A stretch of 27,470 bases of DNA, taken from Promethearchaeota archaeon (lineage in GTDB: Archaea > Asgardarchaeota > Lokiarchaeia > Sigyniarchaeales > SOKP01). The stretch lies in assembly GCA_019058295.1 (NCBI GenBank), contig JAHPZI010000002.1, positions 156,176 to 183,645 of the forward strand, read 5' to 3'. How positions within the stretch are numbered: the first letter of the stretch is position 1; each line of letters opens with the position of its first letter. The notes under the pieces were generated by a model, which saw nothing but the letters and a program-made list of their open reading frames with translations, ran no database searches and had not been told where the DNA came from. The position numbers and the translations under genes were made by a program. Shown one piece after another: positions 16,854 to 22,004 of this stretch.

Positions 16854-17538
16854 TTACTCCTTTTTATTTATAATCTTAATACCTTCTTCTAATCCAATTT
16901 GCAACGCCTGAATATTATCCTCAGGATCTCTAAGCCATTCCTTTATTACTTCCTCATAATGTTCAATCTCAATAAACGGAATTTTACCTGTAGCAATCGC
17001 AAAACCTAACATGATTATATTAACTTGCTTATTACTGTTAAATTTTTTAAGTGATAATTCAGTTGCATTCATAAAAAAGACCTCATCTGAATACCCCTTT
17101 AAGATCTCTTTGATTTTCTCCAAGGATGGATATTCTTCCAAATTGGCTGTAATTAAAATTGGCGGAATTGTGCGCGTATTAATGACGAACGTCGTTTTAT
17201 TTGAAGCAAATATCCCTCGTCTTAACGCTTCTACAGGTTCAAAACATATATATAAATCAGCATCACCATAACAGATCAATGGAGATTGAAGATTCTTACG
17301 GTCATCTTCAAAAATTTCCTTTTGATATCTCGTATGACTTGAAATTGCTCCTTCTCGCTGAGCGAGCCCATGCATTAAATGTATATGCTTGAGTTAAGCT
17401 TTATATTTCACTTCCAAAAGCTCGCTTTATTCCAGCTTTTTGAGCAGCAAATTCAATTAATCTTTTCAAGGTAATAACGCCTTGTCCAGCAGTTCCAGCT
17501 ATAACGATATTTATTATATCTGTTTCATTAAATTTCAC
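16854..17538 (-). CDS. iorB: Indolepyruvate:ferredoxin oxidoreductase beta subunit, split by a 31-nt insertion; join(17538..17405,17373..16854) gives 217 aa
   Basis: GTG start at 17538 with SD GGAGGT. Exon 1 reads MKFNETDIINIVIAGTAGQGVITLKRLIEFAAQKAGIKRAFGSE and then runs into a TAA. Removing 17404-17374 joins it to MHGLAQREG...FEPVEALR, giving the IorB signature SExHGxAQR. Directly downstream of iorA. Confidence 0.9.
17374..17404 (-). other. Putative BHB-type mRNA intron in iorB (31 nt; contains a canonical inner BHB delimiting 17381-17400)
   Basis: Minus strand: AG TGAA AT^ATAAAGCTTAACTCAAGCATATACA TTTA AT^G CAT. The 4-bp helix UGAA/UUUA, cut 2 nt 3' of each strand, restores GAA ATG CAT. 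Flanking exons pair (AGCGAGCUU/GGGCUCGCU). Confidence 0.75.
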
Positions 17539-19498
17539 GGAATGATACCTCCTTTTCTAAAGCATTGAAGATGGATTTATGTATCGCGGCATTGGGACAT
17601 ATTTTGAAGCATACGCCGCATTTTATGCATCTATCCTCATCAATTTGCATAGTTTCTTTTTCGTCGATTACGGTCCGGCGTATTGCCGGGCAACTAAGAA
17701 TTCTTGCACATTCATAGCACATTTGACAATTATAGACTTGATAGACTTCCTCTTTTATTTTTTCTCCTTTCTCTTCGAGGTCTTTAATCTGACTTATACG
17801 CCATCGATGAGCTTGAAGAGCGCATTCCCTTTTAATGATAATTACTTTTAAGCCTTTAATTTTTAGACCCTCTTCAATAGTTCGAATAAGTTTCTTAGGA
17901 TTATACGAATCCTCGACTCGAAGCCATGGTACACCTATTGCTTTACAAATTGTTTCTATTGAAAATCCTTTATTAATTAAATATCTAAGGACATCATCTT
18001 GATGGCCGGTCATCGCTGTCCATGAATTTTCAAAGATAATTAGGAGTACATTTGAATTATATCCAACAGCTTCTGCTAATGGTGGCATACCCGTGTGAAA
18101 AAACGTGGAATCTCCTATCAATGCTATAATTTGTTGTTCAGTTTTGGTGGACATGCCAATAGCCGCACTTATCCCTCCGGACATGCAAATGATTAAATCA
18201 CTACATTCTTGAGGTGGGAAAAATGACATAACATAACATCCAATATCTCCACAAATTACAGTATTTTCTAAACTATTTGTTGCTTTTAATATAGAATAGA
18301 GTGTAGCTCGTTCAGGACAACCAGCACAAAAAGTAGGAAATCTGCTAGGAACAACCTCTTTATACGAATTGAAATAATCGATAGCTTTTATCATCTGATC
18401 GTTTGGTGTTTTATTAAAGATCTTTGCTAAACAAGTGGCGACTAATCCAGTAGAAAATTCATTATATTTAGGGAAAAATTTCTCTCCAATTATTTCTACC
18501 TTAATTCTTTGATTCTGAGCAATTTCAGCAATTTTCATTTCTAAAAAGGGTTCTAATTCTTCGATAATAATTACTTTTTCTAGGCATTGCATGAAATTAG
18601 TTATTTCTTTGTAGTTTAGTGGGTAAATCATTCCAAGTTTTAGAACTGGCACATCGTTTAATCCTAATTGTTCAAGAGCTTCCATTGTATAACCAAAAGG
18701 CATACCGCTAGTTATTATTCCTATTTTATTATCCCCTGAGATAATTTTATTTAATCCTAGTTCAGGAATAGCTGCCCTTAATTTCTCAATTCGTTCATAT
18801 AATCTAATATGATTATTGATGGCATGAGGAGGCAATGAATTGAATTTTGGAATATTTCTGATAAATTCTCCTTTTCCCTTACCCTTTTTTAGTGGTTCTA
18901 ACTCCACAAATCCTCTAGAATGAGCACTTCTAGTTGACATCCGAAAATCAAAAACCAAATCGTATTTTTCTGAAAGATCAAAAGCGATTTTAATCCAATC
19001 TTTACATTCTTGAGGCGTGTGAGGTTCAATAGTAGGAAGATGAAGCATCCATGCATAAAAACGCTCATTTTGTTCCTGGTGTGAGCCGAGTGATCCTGGA
19101 TCAGAACCGATCGAGACGACCATTCCTCCGGGATTTGGTCCATTTAACGCAATTACACTAAGAGCATCGCTCGCTACATTCAGCCCAACGTGCTTCATAG
19201 GATTAAGGCTTCTACATCCAGTCCAAGCAGCTCCCGCACAAGCAGAGGTTGCTACCGCTTCGTTTACAGCCCAATGATGCACTAAATATTCACTCATCTC
19301 GGGATTTTCTCGAAGAACTTGATGAAAATATTCTCCAATATCACTAGTTGGAGTACCTGGATATTGAGAAACATAAGACACCCCTGCCTCGAGACAACCT
19401 CTTACAAGGGCCTCGTTACCGAGCATTAATACTTTTCCTTGCTCATCAAGAAATCGAGTATCTTTTATTGGCAATTTAATCCTCTTCAATAATTTCAA
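17528..19498 (-). CDS. iorA: Indolepyruvate:ferredoxin oxidoreductase alpha subunit
   Basis: GNEALVRG, YPGTP, MKHVGLNVASD, FCAGCP, GDIGCY, TPP-binding GDSTFFHTG...N..TAMTGHQ and a C-terminal 2x[4Fe-4S] ferredoxin domain (CQMCYEC, CIKCGVCFKICP). Confidence 0.95.
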   Translation of the reverse strand: MKLLKRIKLPIKDTRFLDEQGKVLMLGNEALVRGCLEAGVSYVSQYPGTPTSDIGEYFHQVLRENPEMSEYLVHHWAVNEAVATSACAGAAWTGCRSLNPMKHVGLNVASDALSVIALNGPNPGGMVVSIGSDPGSLGSHQEQNERFYAWMLHLPTIEPHTPQECKDWIKIAFDLSEKYDLVFDFRMSTRSAHSRGFVELEPLKKGKGKGEFIRNIPKFNSLPPHAINNHIRLYERIEKLRAAIPELGLNKIISGDNKIGIITSGMPFGYTMEALEQLGLNDVPVLKLGMIYPLNYKEITNFMQCLEKVIIIEELEPFLEMKIAEIAQNQRIKVEIIGEKFFPKYNEFSTGLVATCLAKIFNKTPNDQMIKAIDYFNSYKEVVPSRFPTFCAGCPERATLYSILKATNSLENTVICGDIGCYVMSFFPPQECSDLIICMSGGISAAIGMSTKTEQQIIALIGDSTFFHTGMPPLAEAVGYNSNVLLIIFENSWTAMTGHQDDVLRYLINKGFSIETICKAIGVPWLRVEDSYNPKKLIRTIEEGLKIKGLKVIIIKRECALQAHRWRISQIKDLEEKGEKIKEEVYQVYNCQMCYECARILSCPAIRRTVIDEKETMQIDEDRCIKCGVCFKICPNAAIHKSIFNALEKEVSFREI

Positions 19499-19702
19499 GT
19501 TAATTTATAATTTAAAAGCTAAATTACAAAAAAAATTTATGATTATCTTTTGTAATTAGAGGTTTCAAAAATTAGTTTTATGTTAAATCATTGAAAAAAG
19601 AATAAGATCAATTTAAAAATTAAAGAAAAATAAAAAAAAATAAAGAAAGGATAATTTTCATTTTTTTTATGTACTTTTAAAATAATTCCCCATTCTAGTA
19701 TT

Positions 19703-20709: not shown

Positions 20710-20756
20710 AAAAAAAAAGAAAATTTAAAAAAAAATTTTATAAAAAAAATAAAAAA
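20710..20756 (-). terminator. Oligo-T tracts downstream of actin (archaeal-type terminator candidate)
   Basis: Several T5-T9 runs on the minus strand beginning about 40 nt after the restored actin stop (TAG 20800-20798). Confidence 0.45.
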
Positions 20757-20797
20757 TTATATATATTAAGGCATTTATCTCGGTTCTAAAAGCATCC

Positions 20798-22004
20798 CTA
20801 GAAGCAACGATGTATAACTTGAGGCCCCATCTCTTTGTATTCGTGAAGTTGGTAAAATCTTCCAACTTTTTCGCGACGAGTCACCCACATTTTTCACGAT
20901 TCAAGCGTTCTCGCTTGAAACTCTATGAAATGTTTTGAGTGACGAGAGAATTGAGCCGCCTATCCATACGGAATACATACGTTCTGGTGGTGCAATAATC
21001 TTTACATCAACAGACTCAGGGATTTGTTCTTTTATTTCCTTGGTCAATCTTTCTTTAATGCCTGGGAACATAGTAGAACCTCCAGAGAGCACTATATTGC
21101 TGTAGAGATCTCTTCTTAGGTCGACATCACACTCGGAAATAGCGCCTACGATAACATCATCTAAAGGCTCTAATTCTTTCCCGATTACTGATGGATTAAA
21201 TAAGCATTCAGGGCCTAGAAATCTTTCTACACCTACGTTAATTGTTTCACCATCAGGAAGCATGTAGCTCTTTTCCATTCCAGCTACTTTCTTGCTAAGC
21301 ATCATCTCCTTTTCAGGATCAATCGCTACATAACAAAGCTTCTCTTTGATGTCTCTAACTATTTCTTTCTCTGCCGAAGTAGTAAATGAATATCCTTTTT
21401 GTCTGAGTAATCTTTGTAAATATGTCGTTATATCTCTACCTGCTAGGTCTATTCTTTGGATGGCGTGACTTAAGGCGAAACCCTCGAAGATTGGTACAAC
21501 GTGGGAAACACCATCACCAATATCAATAACGCATCCAGTAGTACGACCAGAAGCATATAAAGACAATACCGCTTGCATAGCAACGTATAATGCTGGAGTG
21601 TTAAACGTCTCAAACATTATTTCAGCCATTTTTTCTCTGTTTGGCCTTGGATTTAATGGAGCTTCGGTTAAAAGTACTGGATGTTCACTAGGATCAATGC
21701 GCAAATCGGTGTAAAATGTGTAATGCCAGATCTTTTCCATTGCTGTCCAATCTTCAATGATACCATGCTCTACAGGGAACATTAGTTTTAAAACACCTTT
21801 GAGTTGCATTGCTTCTTCTCCAATGTAATACTCACGGGTATAATGTTCGACATCAGTCATTATGCTTTCATACTTAGGATAACCAATTAACGTTGGAAAT
21901 ACGGATCGAGGTTGATCCTCACCGGCAAATCCATTTTTAGAAATACCTGTACCATTGTCAACCACTAAGGCCTTAGCATTTAAAAAGCTTTCATCTTCTG
22001 CCAT
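20798..22004 (-). CDS. Asgard actin (Lokiactin), three exons: join(22004..20923,20891..20870,20839..20798) gives 381 aa
   Basis: Actin motifs [60 protein letters not shown] and [13 protein letters not shown]. The ORF track ends aberrantly in VSSENA*. The missing actin C-terminus [20 protein letters not shown] lies just downstream in another frame, interrupted by two hairpin inserts. Confidence 0.95.
20840..20869 (-). other. Putative BHB-type mRNA intron 2 in actin (30 nt, in-frame)
   Basis: Minus strand: GT CGCG AA^A AAGTTGG AAGATTTTA CCAACTT CACG AA^T AC. It has a 7-bp inner stem, a 4-bp helix CGCG/CACG (one C.A mismatch), two 3-nt bulges and outer pairs GU/AC. Excision gives CGC GAA TAC (R-E-Y). 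Confidence 0.75.
20892..20922 (-). other. Putative BHB-type mRNA intron 1 in actin (31 nt, frameshifting, contains in-frame TGA)
   Basis: Minus strand: ACATT TCAT AG^A GTTTCAAGCG AGAA CGCTTGAATC GTGA AA^A ATGT. It has a perfect 8-bp inner stem, a 4-bp helix UCAU/GUGA and bulges AGA and AAA. Excision gives CAT AGA ATG TGG (H-R-M-W). Confidence 0.85.

Follow-up and report, generated by a model that had tools for sequence, protein, structure and literature searches.

Short inserts in the actin and iorB genes of a Promethearchaeota archaeon as probable bulge-helix-bulge introns

We analyzed a stretch of 27,470 nucleotides (nt) from a Promethearchaeota archaeon (assembly GCA_019058295.1, contig JAHPZI010000002.1, positions 156,176 to 183,645 of the forward strand; hereafter the window), in which the actin gene (Lokiactin-type) is broken by two inserts and the oxidoreductase gene iorB by one. 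The three inserts are most likely spliced archaeal bulge-helix-bulge (BHB) introns inside protein-coding genes, a reading to which we assign a rough probability of 0.85, and actin and IorB are very probably made only after the messenger RNA (mRNA) has been cut and re-joined. The source genome (labelled G000) is a metagenome-assembled genome (MAG) of 30 contigs that is 79% complete and has a G+C content of 30.7%. The genes and their parts, all on the minus strand and in window positions, are as follows.

22004..20798, minus: actin gene (Lokiactin-type), with inserts of 31 nt and 30 nt
20923..22004, minus: actin exon 1; Pfam Actin 1.8e-122; ends with ...KTFH plus AG of an Arg codon; 100% identical to the G007 orthologue
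20892..20922, minus: actin intron 1, 31 nt; absent in all 27 orthologues examined
20870..20891, minus: actin exon 2, a 22-nt micro-exon, A ATG TGG GTG ACT CGT CGC GAA, encoding (R)MWVTRRE
20840..20869, minus: actin intron 2, 30 nt; in frame and without a stop
20798..20839, minus: actin exon 3, ending in TAG, placed by sequence and orthologues
17538..16854, minus: iorB gene with one 31-nt insert
17407..17538, minus: iorB exon 1, 44 codons; its GTG start overlaps the end of iorA; ends with ...AFGSE
17376..17406, minus: iorB intron, 31 nt, with an in-frame TAA; register favoured by covariation in alignment A1 (see below)
16854..17375, minus: iorB exon 2, 173 codons plus stop; MHGLAQREG...; Pfam POR positions 29-172
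17528..19498, minus: iorA, thiamine pyrophosphate (TPP)-binding alpha subunit with 4Fe-4S domains, uninterrupted; Pfam TPP_enzyme_C, POR_N, and Fer4; upstream partner of iorB

Interrupted genes, insert-free relatives, and RNA

The actin gene reads TTT CAT AGA, then 31 nt, ATG TGG GTG ACT CGT CGC GAA, then 30 nt, and TAC AAA GAG, with TAC AAA GAG ATG GGG CCT CAA GTT ATA CAT CGT TGC TTC TAG as the whole of exon 3. Left unspliced, its open reading frame (20901..22004) ends after 367 amino acids with FHRVSSENA and reaches only positions 4-390 of the 410 positions of the Pfam Actin profile. Excision of both inserts gives an actin of 381 amino acids, which matches the insert-free orthologue of the congener G007 over its entire length at 100% identity and without a gap, and which aligns without gaps to 20 orthologues. 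The insert-free tail, or a near variant of it, is found in 25 of the 27 actin orthologues of related genomes (88-100% amino acid identity). The iorB gene reads GGA AGT GAA, 31 nt with an in-frame TAA, and ATG CAT GGG, and its downstream open reading frame begins at position 29 of the 173-position POR profile. Excision of the insert yields an IorB of 217 amino acids containing FGSEMHGLAQREG, which is exactly what insert-free iorB orthologues read, and five intron-less orthologues can be aligned to the joined protein over its full length without a gap; AFGSEMHGLAQR is a junction-spanning peptide predicted from the spliced product. A first-pass annotation, made from the letters of this DNA, had given the coordinates and lengths of the inserts (30-31 nt), which are correct on the sequence, and had claimed that their excision restores the frame and the motifs FHR/MW, RRE/YKE, and SE/MHG (slashes in peptides mark the joints). 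These motifs are real, because the insert-free orthologues read exactly so. As to a further, intact Lokiactin, which that annotation had named as an obstacle to its proposal, no second Lokiactin-type gene was found in the assembly.

Inserts in the same part of actin were also identified in other genomes. The gene L011 carries its own frame-shifting 31-nt insert at RRE/YKE, the site of intron 2 in the window, L014 (G017:C5, another genus) carries a 33-nt insert at RRE/YKE and a 31-nt insert at PQV/IHR, and L088, on a metagenome contig, carries a 31-nt insert at RRE/YKE. L088 was recovered by a metagenome pattern scan for one-intron actin tails, being the one true actin among the matches listed, with the rest due to chance. 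The actin C-terminus of this family has been struck at three different sites. The second Arg codon at the intron-2 site is CGY in all four intron-bearing genes, compared to 12 CGN and 10 AGR codons in intron-less genes, a difference that is suggestive, not significant, and was not used. For iorB, an insert of 30 or 31 nt was found at exactly the same site in seven related genomes and in further Promethearchaeota MAGs from several genera. Within the genus of the window, this intron is present in the genome studied here, G005, and G007, and absent from G001-G004, G006, and G009 (the iorB copy of G008 is incomplete at a contig end and lies outside this pattern); it also occurs in six other genera of the family. 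The distribution is patchy and therefore points to repeated exact loss (or gain). For IorA and the neighbouring Fe-S protein, tblastn against the loci of the relatives revealed no further inserts. The window also holds a second gene of the POR-gamma/IorB type (3468-4061, minus strand), which is uninterrupted (Pfam POR positions 1-172).

Four of these inserts, i.e., actin intron 1, the insert of L011, intron 3 of L014 (at PQV/IHR), and the iorB intron, are 31 nt long and shift the frame. The protein encoded 3' of the frame-shifting inserts is perfectly conserved across genera, although synonymous sites vary widely, and these downstream exons therefore have to be translated in the restored frame.

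Presence of the inserts in DNA and their absence from RNA were checked with Logan contigs, using a second DNA sample (X2) and two metatranscriptome runs from another study (X15 and X16). All three inserts are present in the X2 assembly, as the first-pass annotation had expected of inserts that are real in the DNA. Over 20564..20991 (428 nt, including both actin inserts), a contig of X2 is identical to the window and ungapped, and the iorB intron is spanned without a gap by X2 DNA from a 97% identical strain. X15 and X16 each contributed one RNA contig that matches 20922..21104 (183 nt of exon 1) with 0 differences, continues with 18 letters of the micro-exon, and resumes at 20842 with GAATACAAAGAG, with 33-42 nt of exon 3 identical to the window. 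The contigs thus have exactly the sequence expected after both splicing events, and the predicted actin junctions, without both introns, are present in RNA of the same species. The only differences from the window are synonymous, at 20873 and 20879 (ACT>ACC and CGC>CGT; the contigs read ACC CGT CGT), and both sit within the 18 micro-exon letters between the joints. The nearest other species show 18-21 differences in the same 183 bases of exon 1 and further differences throughout exons 2 and 3; because they differ far more, we assign the RNA contigs to this species. The CGC>CGT change would complete the central helix of intron 2 (CGTG/CACG, with a C.A mismatch turned into U:A), as would be expected of a strain that has the introns and is under selection for their structure. 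No contigs covered the iorB intron in any of the three RNA runs.

Bulge-helix-bulge folds and the putative splicing enzymes

The BHB motif consists of a helix of 4 base pairs (bp) between two 3-nt bulges on opposite strands (PMC7714728). For the ranking of folds, all BHB-like geometries within ±15 nt of each homology-defined intron were enumerated (L 20-45, at most one mismatch) and ordered by constrained folding energy. The set comprised seven homology-defined introns, i.e., the two actin introns and the iorB intron of the window, L011, the two of L014, and L088. Canonical BHBs are cut after the second base of each bulge, and we called a fold rule-consistent if its cuts fell after base 2 of both bulges and its product equalled the orthologue. 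The elements of the three folds in the window (H and H' being the strands of the central helix) are listed here.

20928..20925 (H, TCAT) with 20897..20894 (H', GTGA), minus: central helix of actin intron 1; bulges 20924..20922 and 20893..20891; hairpin 20921..20898
20875..20872 (H, CGCG) with 20845..20842 (H', CACG), minus: central helix of actin intron 2; bulges 20871..20869 and 20841..20839; hairpin 20868..20846 (7 bp)
17412..17409 (H, AGTG) with 17381..17378 (H', CATT), minus: central helix of the iorB intron; bulges 17408..17406 and 17377..17375
17405..17402 with 17385..17382, minus: inner helix of the iorB intron, plus a hairpin GCTT/AAGC

Actin intron 1 forms a clean BHB with a 9-bp inner hairpin and the bulges AGA and AAA, each cut after its second base, and its rule-consistent fold ranks first of 120 (-13.4 kcal/mol). 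First ranks were also obtained for intron 2 of L014 (at RRE/YKE, 33 nt, with a perfect CGCG/CGCG helix; 1 of 77) and for L088 (CGTG/CACG helix; 1 of 128), while intron 3 of L014 ranked third of 145 and L011 ranked 14th of 115. In total, the rule-consistent fold came first to third among 77-145 alternatives in four of the seven introns, which exceeds what chance would give, and the EndA cut rule was obeyed in six of the seven. The product of the rule is the intron-less orthologue sequence for the three introns of the window, L011, L014 (two introns), and L088. Furthermore, the hairpin of actin intron 2 varies compensatorily among L003, L011, L014, and L088.

For iorB, 17 distinct homologous introns, including that of this genome, were aligned (A1). 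Their consensus fold has a central helix AG(T/C)G / C(A/G)(C/T)T, the bulges AAN and NNA, each cut after the second base (AAA and TAA in the window), a 3-bp helix, and a 6-bp hairpin. Paired cells make up 90.2% in this register, compared to 20-49% in slid registers, and the covariation score is 0.50, compared to at most 0.20; none of 500 shuffles reached it. The third base of a Ser codon in the exon pairs with a base of the intron (U:A in 12 sequences, C:G in 5, unpaired in 0), and this exon-intron pair requires about two to four changes on a poorly resolved tree, whose well-supported branches force only one change. The weak iorB fold of the window is rescued by this comparison across 17 sequences.

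The first-pass annotation had ascribed one BHB geometry to all three inserts, which stands with small corrections: actin intron 1 is clean, the central helix of actin intron 2 has three of four pairs, and the iorB register probably lies 2 nt away. The register it had noted for iorB (TGAA/TTTA, cut 17404..17374) is possible; the 17 homologous introns favour 17406..17376, and the resulting mRNA is identical. Its interest in typing the endonuclease was answered by two genes for EndA-domain proteins of 201 amino acids each (TIGR00324, 120 and 84 bits). For the alpha-like protein, encoded on G000:C1 (L001:1168-1773), the best match is the catalytic chain of the Aeropyrum pernix heterotetramer (3p1z_B, 3.9e-36), and the catalytic His, the motifs GLKFGADF..VY, EHSPF, and SVRKK, and a Lys-bearing KPR loop are retained. 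In the beta-like protein, encoded on G000:C26 (L002:1426-2031), the catalytic His is replaced, and the match to a beta-subunit model is weak. Judged from these features, the EndA of this genome is of the (alpha-beta)2 broad-specificity crenarchaeal/Asgard type. An Asgard (alpha-beta)2 EndA with a broad-specificity L1 loop has already been published (PMC5829648), and (alpha-beta)2 EndA accepts relaxed BHBs with various bulge lengths (PMC7714728, PMC5829648). The ligase RtcB was found in eight of the nine genomes of the genus, including all four of high quality. Two congeners have rtcB itself in two same-strand pieces separated by 26 nt (G002:C3:15844-17180 and G006:C13:33313-34649), the first matching positions 1-47 of the profile and the second 47-426, as if a mini-intron had entered the very gene whose product, the ligase, would be needed for its splicing.

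In the mechanism that we propose, the four exon bases just 5' of an insert would pair with four bases near its 3' end in the pre-mRNA, which would give a central helix with a 3-nt bulge on either side, one per strand, and leave the rest of the insert to fold as a hairpin. Heterotetrameric (alpha-beta)2 EndA would then cut after the second base of each bulge, and an RtcB-type ligase would join the exons and probably circularise the intron. The products would be the 381-amino-acid actin, assembled from three exons of which one is the 22-nt micro-exon, and the 217-amino-acid IorB. We infer that EndA acts as the nuclease and RtcB as the ligase, and that splicing takes place within the intron-carrying cells.

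No Rfam family was matched at gathering score anywhere in the window. Self-splicing group I or group II introns were considered as candidates and rejected, given the lack of an Rfam match and a length of 30-31 nt, much less than that of a ribozyme. Outside their own loci, the three introns had only chance matches of 10-12 nt in the genome, and no high-copy repeat was found.

Alternative explanations

Several observations weigh against splicing of this kind. Regarding the folds, a C.A mismatch leaves actin intron 2 with three of the four pairs of its central helix, and its fold ranks fifth of 103 (bulges AAA and AAT), and the iorB fold of the window is A+U-rich and thermodynamically weak (-2.4 kcal/mol, rank 19 of 132). 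The ribosomal protein gene uS11 (G000:C1, minus strand) contains a 30-nt insert with an in-frame TAA (SSPYAA/MQCGFR), the boundaries of which are fixed by the conserved SSPYAAM; its BHB is otherwise good (H CAGC/GTTG), and its 5' cut falls after bulge base 3, not 2, so that uS11 may be a non-canonical case or have a 4-nt bulge. Regarding the ligase, RtcB gave no PF01139 match in this assembly, which at 79% completeness is not evidence of absence. Actin intron 1 is known in this species only, and long-term selection on it is not demonstrable. Finally, the RNA support takes the form of assembled contigs, which belong to another study and deviate from the window at two micro-exon bases, and this RNA may conceivably derive from an intron-less strain of the same species.

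The relaxed motifs (the mismatch in intron 2, the weak iorB fold, and uS11 being off by one) and the failure to find RtcB in this assembly would also suit a removal of the inserts from RNA through some other nuclease and ligase, with the BHB-like fold being only part of the signal. We regard this as very unlikely, as the genome encodes both the alpha and the beta subunit of EndA, as enzymes of this type tolerate relaxed motifs (PMC7714728, PMC5829648), as RtcB occurs in eight of nine congeners, and as the EndA cut rule was followed in six of the seven homology-defined cases.

A slimmer chance still is given to small insertions, e.g., miniature mobile hairpins, that merely disrupt the genes, so that actin would be truncated and iorB split or dead, and RNA without introns would come from a co-occurring strain. 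This explanation draws on the foreign origin of the RNA contigs, on the two micro-exon bases unlike those of the window, and on the restriction of actin intron 1 to one species. It is opposed by the single copy of actin, by the perfect conservation across genera of exons downstream of frame-shifting inserts, and by the iorB insert, which occupies a single site in 17 genomes and shows compensatory changes that extend to exon-intron pairs. Moreover, the inserts are not repeated elsewhere in the genome, and insert-free orthologues lack them to the base, which fits intron gain and loss, not decay.

Programmed translational bypassing, in which the ribosome would hop over 30-31 nt and the inserts would stay in the mRNA, must be rated lower again. 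The inserts are short and hairpin-forming, fall in the same size class as known bypass elements, and sometimes have a stop right after the take-off site (the TAA of iorB). However, take-off and landing codons do not match (AGA/AAA at actin intron 1 and GAA/TTA at iorB; the GAA/GAA at intron 2 arises by chance), hopping does not need a conserved exon-insert helix with 3-nt bulges at both boundaries, and RNA contigs without the inserts exist. An assembly or binning artefact, with inserts that are not in the DNA of the organism, has the fragmented and incomplete state of the 30-contig MAG in its favour and deserves next to no credence, because an independently assembled second DNA sample contains the inserts (for actin, 428 nt without a difference; for iorB, no gap) and the same iorB insert recurs in many independent MAGs.

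Further split genes and relation to known systems

Splicing by BHB introns in actin and iorB appears to be part of a larger pattern. We consider it likely that Loki-type Asgard archaea run a genome-wide, spliceosome-independent mRNA splicing system, with dozens of BHB mini-introns of about 30 nt that are repeatedly gained and lost, that sit in essential and eukaryote-signature genes (actin, Sec61beta, ribosomal proteins, and perhaps rtcB in relatives), and that are removed by the tRNA-splicing enzymes. The suggestion of the first-pass annotation that more genes are split in the same way is borne out by argG, Sec61beta, uL11, MoxR, and an Fe-S gene, and by an excess of frame-restoring BHBs in a scan of the genome. 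Sec61beta (32 nt) and argG (30 nt) have canonical BHBs, the excision of which restores ...GGAGL/MRFFED and ...SGGL/DTS, respectively. The genome-wide census combined a codon log-odds filter with constrained BHB energies, and revealed 8 frame-restoring candidates at the register of the rule, compared to 2, 2, 2, and 2 at shifts of 1-2 nt (E ≤ -12), or 13 compared to 2, 6, 3, and 7 at the shifted registers (E ≤ -11). Its matches include uL11, argG, the Fe-S gene, and MoxR, and Pfam profile coordinates run on across the break (AAA_5 4-44 and then 53-138; L11_N from position 21). Naive genome-wide BHB scans that ignored coding potential found as many candidates at shifted registers as at the register of the rule and were dropped; they are uninformative because, at 31% G+C, off-frames that stay open for 20-60 codons swamp the signal. 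At least eight genes are split in this genome, by introns of a uniform 29-33 nt. As the census recovered only three of the eight previously known introns, the true number is probably a few dozen, which is a rough estimate.

Two further genes seem, by their sequence, to be interrupted more than once. In Amt (G000:C10:93373-93407; L196), the downstream piece starts at Pfam position 230 of 399 and the upstream frame is open for 20 codons only, and in a GH116/DUF608 gene (G000:C17:71166-71197; L200), the downstream piece starts at position 243 of 361 and the upstream frame is open for 38 codons only. The tRNA introns predicted in this genome by ARAGORN are 13-54 nt long, several of them 28-31 nt. 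On one contig (about 30303-33335), ARAGORN also lists a head-to-tail series of some 27 tRNA genes without introns in 3 kb, the tRNA genes elsewhere being scattered and intron-bearing; the series is reminiscent of the tRNA arrays that viruses or mobile elements carry, or could stem from a contaminant in the bin. Apart from the genes described above, the window encodes a Ras-family GTPase, an LRR protein, MutS/MutL, and a PAS kinase, as is typical of Asgard DNA.

If the inserts are spliced, the archaeal lineage closest to eukaryotes has split protein genes that depend on splicing, including the eukaryotic signature gene actin, and offers a testable prokaryotic precedent for split genes and for RtcB-type mRNA splicing such as that of XBP1/HAC1. 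If the genome-wide system is real as well, the archaea nearest to eukaryotes would already have obligatory mRNA splicing. With standard gene callers, genes of this kind come out as truncated, frameshifted, or missing, and metabolic reconstructions, completeness estimates, and phylogenies of Asgard archaea are biased accordingly. The introns also provide a natural system for the study of intron gain and loss, with one and the same site filled in some close relatives and empty in others, and with co-evolution of intron and exon codons.

The closest known case is the BHB intron in the cbf5 pre-mRNA of Crenarchaeota, i.e., Aeropyrum, Sulfolobus, and Desulfurococcales (Watanabe 2002; Yokobori 2009, PMC2738675), which was called the only such reported intron in 2020, when one intron in a 5' untranslated region (5'UTR) of Haloferax was added (PMC7714728). 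Like the introns described here, that of cbf5 lies in coding sequence, occurs in a lineage with a heterotetrameric broad-specificity EndA, and is lineage-specific in its presence and absence, with exact loss. Unlike cbf5, which is one gene in one phylum, at least eight genes are affected in one Asgard (Promethearchaeota) genome, actin has two introns 22 nt apart, and intron lengths are uniform at 29-33 nt; for cbf5, splicing has been demonstrated by experiment, whereas here it is deduced, with one RNA-contig observation in addition. The 5'UTR intron of Haloferax volcanii HVO_1309 likewise makes mRNA a substrate of the splicing endonuclease (PMC7714728); however, it is a single case in an untranslated region, breaks no frame, and is cut by a homodimeric EndA. 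BHB introns in tRNAs and rRNAs of Asgard and other archaea share the motif, the presumed enzymes, and repeated gain at BHB-capable sites, and the tRNA introns of this genome are also of like size; a 2026 preprint on Asgard introns covers tRNA introns only (bioRxiv 10.64898/2026.10.13.758758). Unlike in tRNA introns, the host here is mRNA, excision has to be exact to the base for the frame, and the exon half of the helix is constrained by codons. In the literature outside subscription journals, our search turned up cbf5 and the Haloferax 5'UTR as the only published cases, and none in a protein gene of an Asgard archaeon.

More distant parallels exist outside BHB splicing. In HAC1/XBP1, mRNA is spliced without the spliceosome through cutting by IRE1 at small stem-loop sites and joining by tRNA ligase or RtcB. 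This splicing resembles the proposed one in using an endonuclease and a ligase; however, its nuclease is IRE1 and not Sen/EndA, and it serves one regulated substrate as a stress switch and is not constitutive. The role of RtcB in splicing of the XBP1/HAC1 type is documented (PMC8718801). In T4 gene 60 and in the byps of Magnusiomyces mitochondria, short hairpin-forming inserts in coding sequence are likewise missing from the protein; however, a bypassed insert stays in the mRNA and has to be bordered by take-off and landing codons that match, neither of which fits actin or iorB. Taken together, the chemistry is known, and what is new is the scale, the uniform size of about 30 nt, several introns per gene together with a 22-nt micro-exon, the lineage, and the genes struck, including actin.

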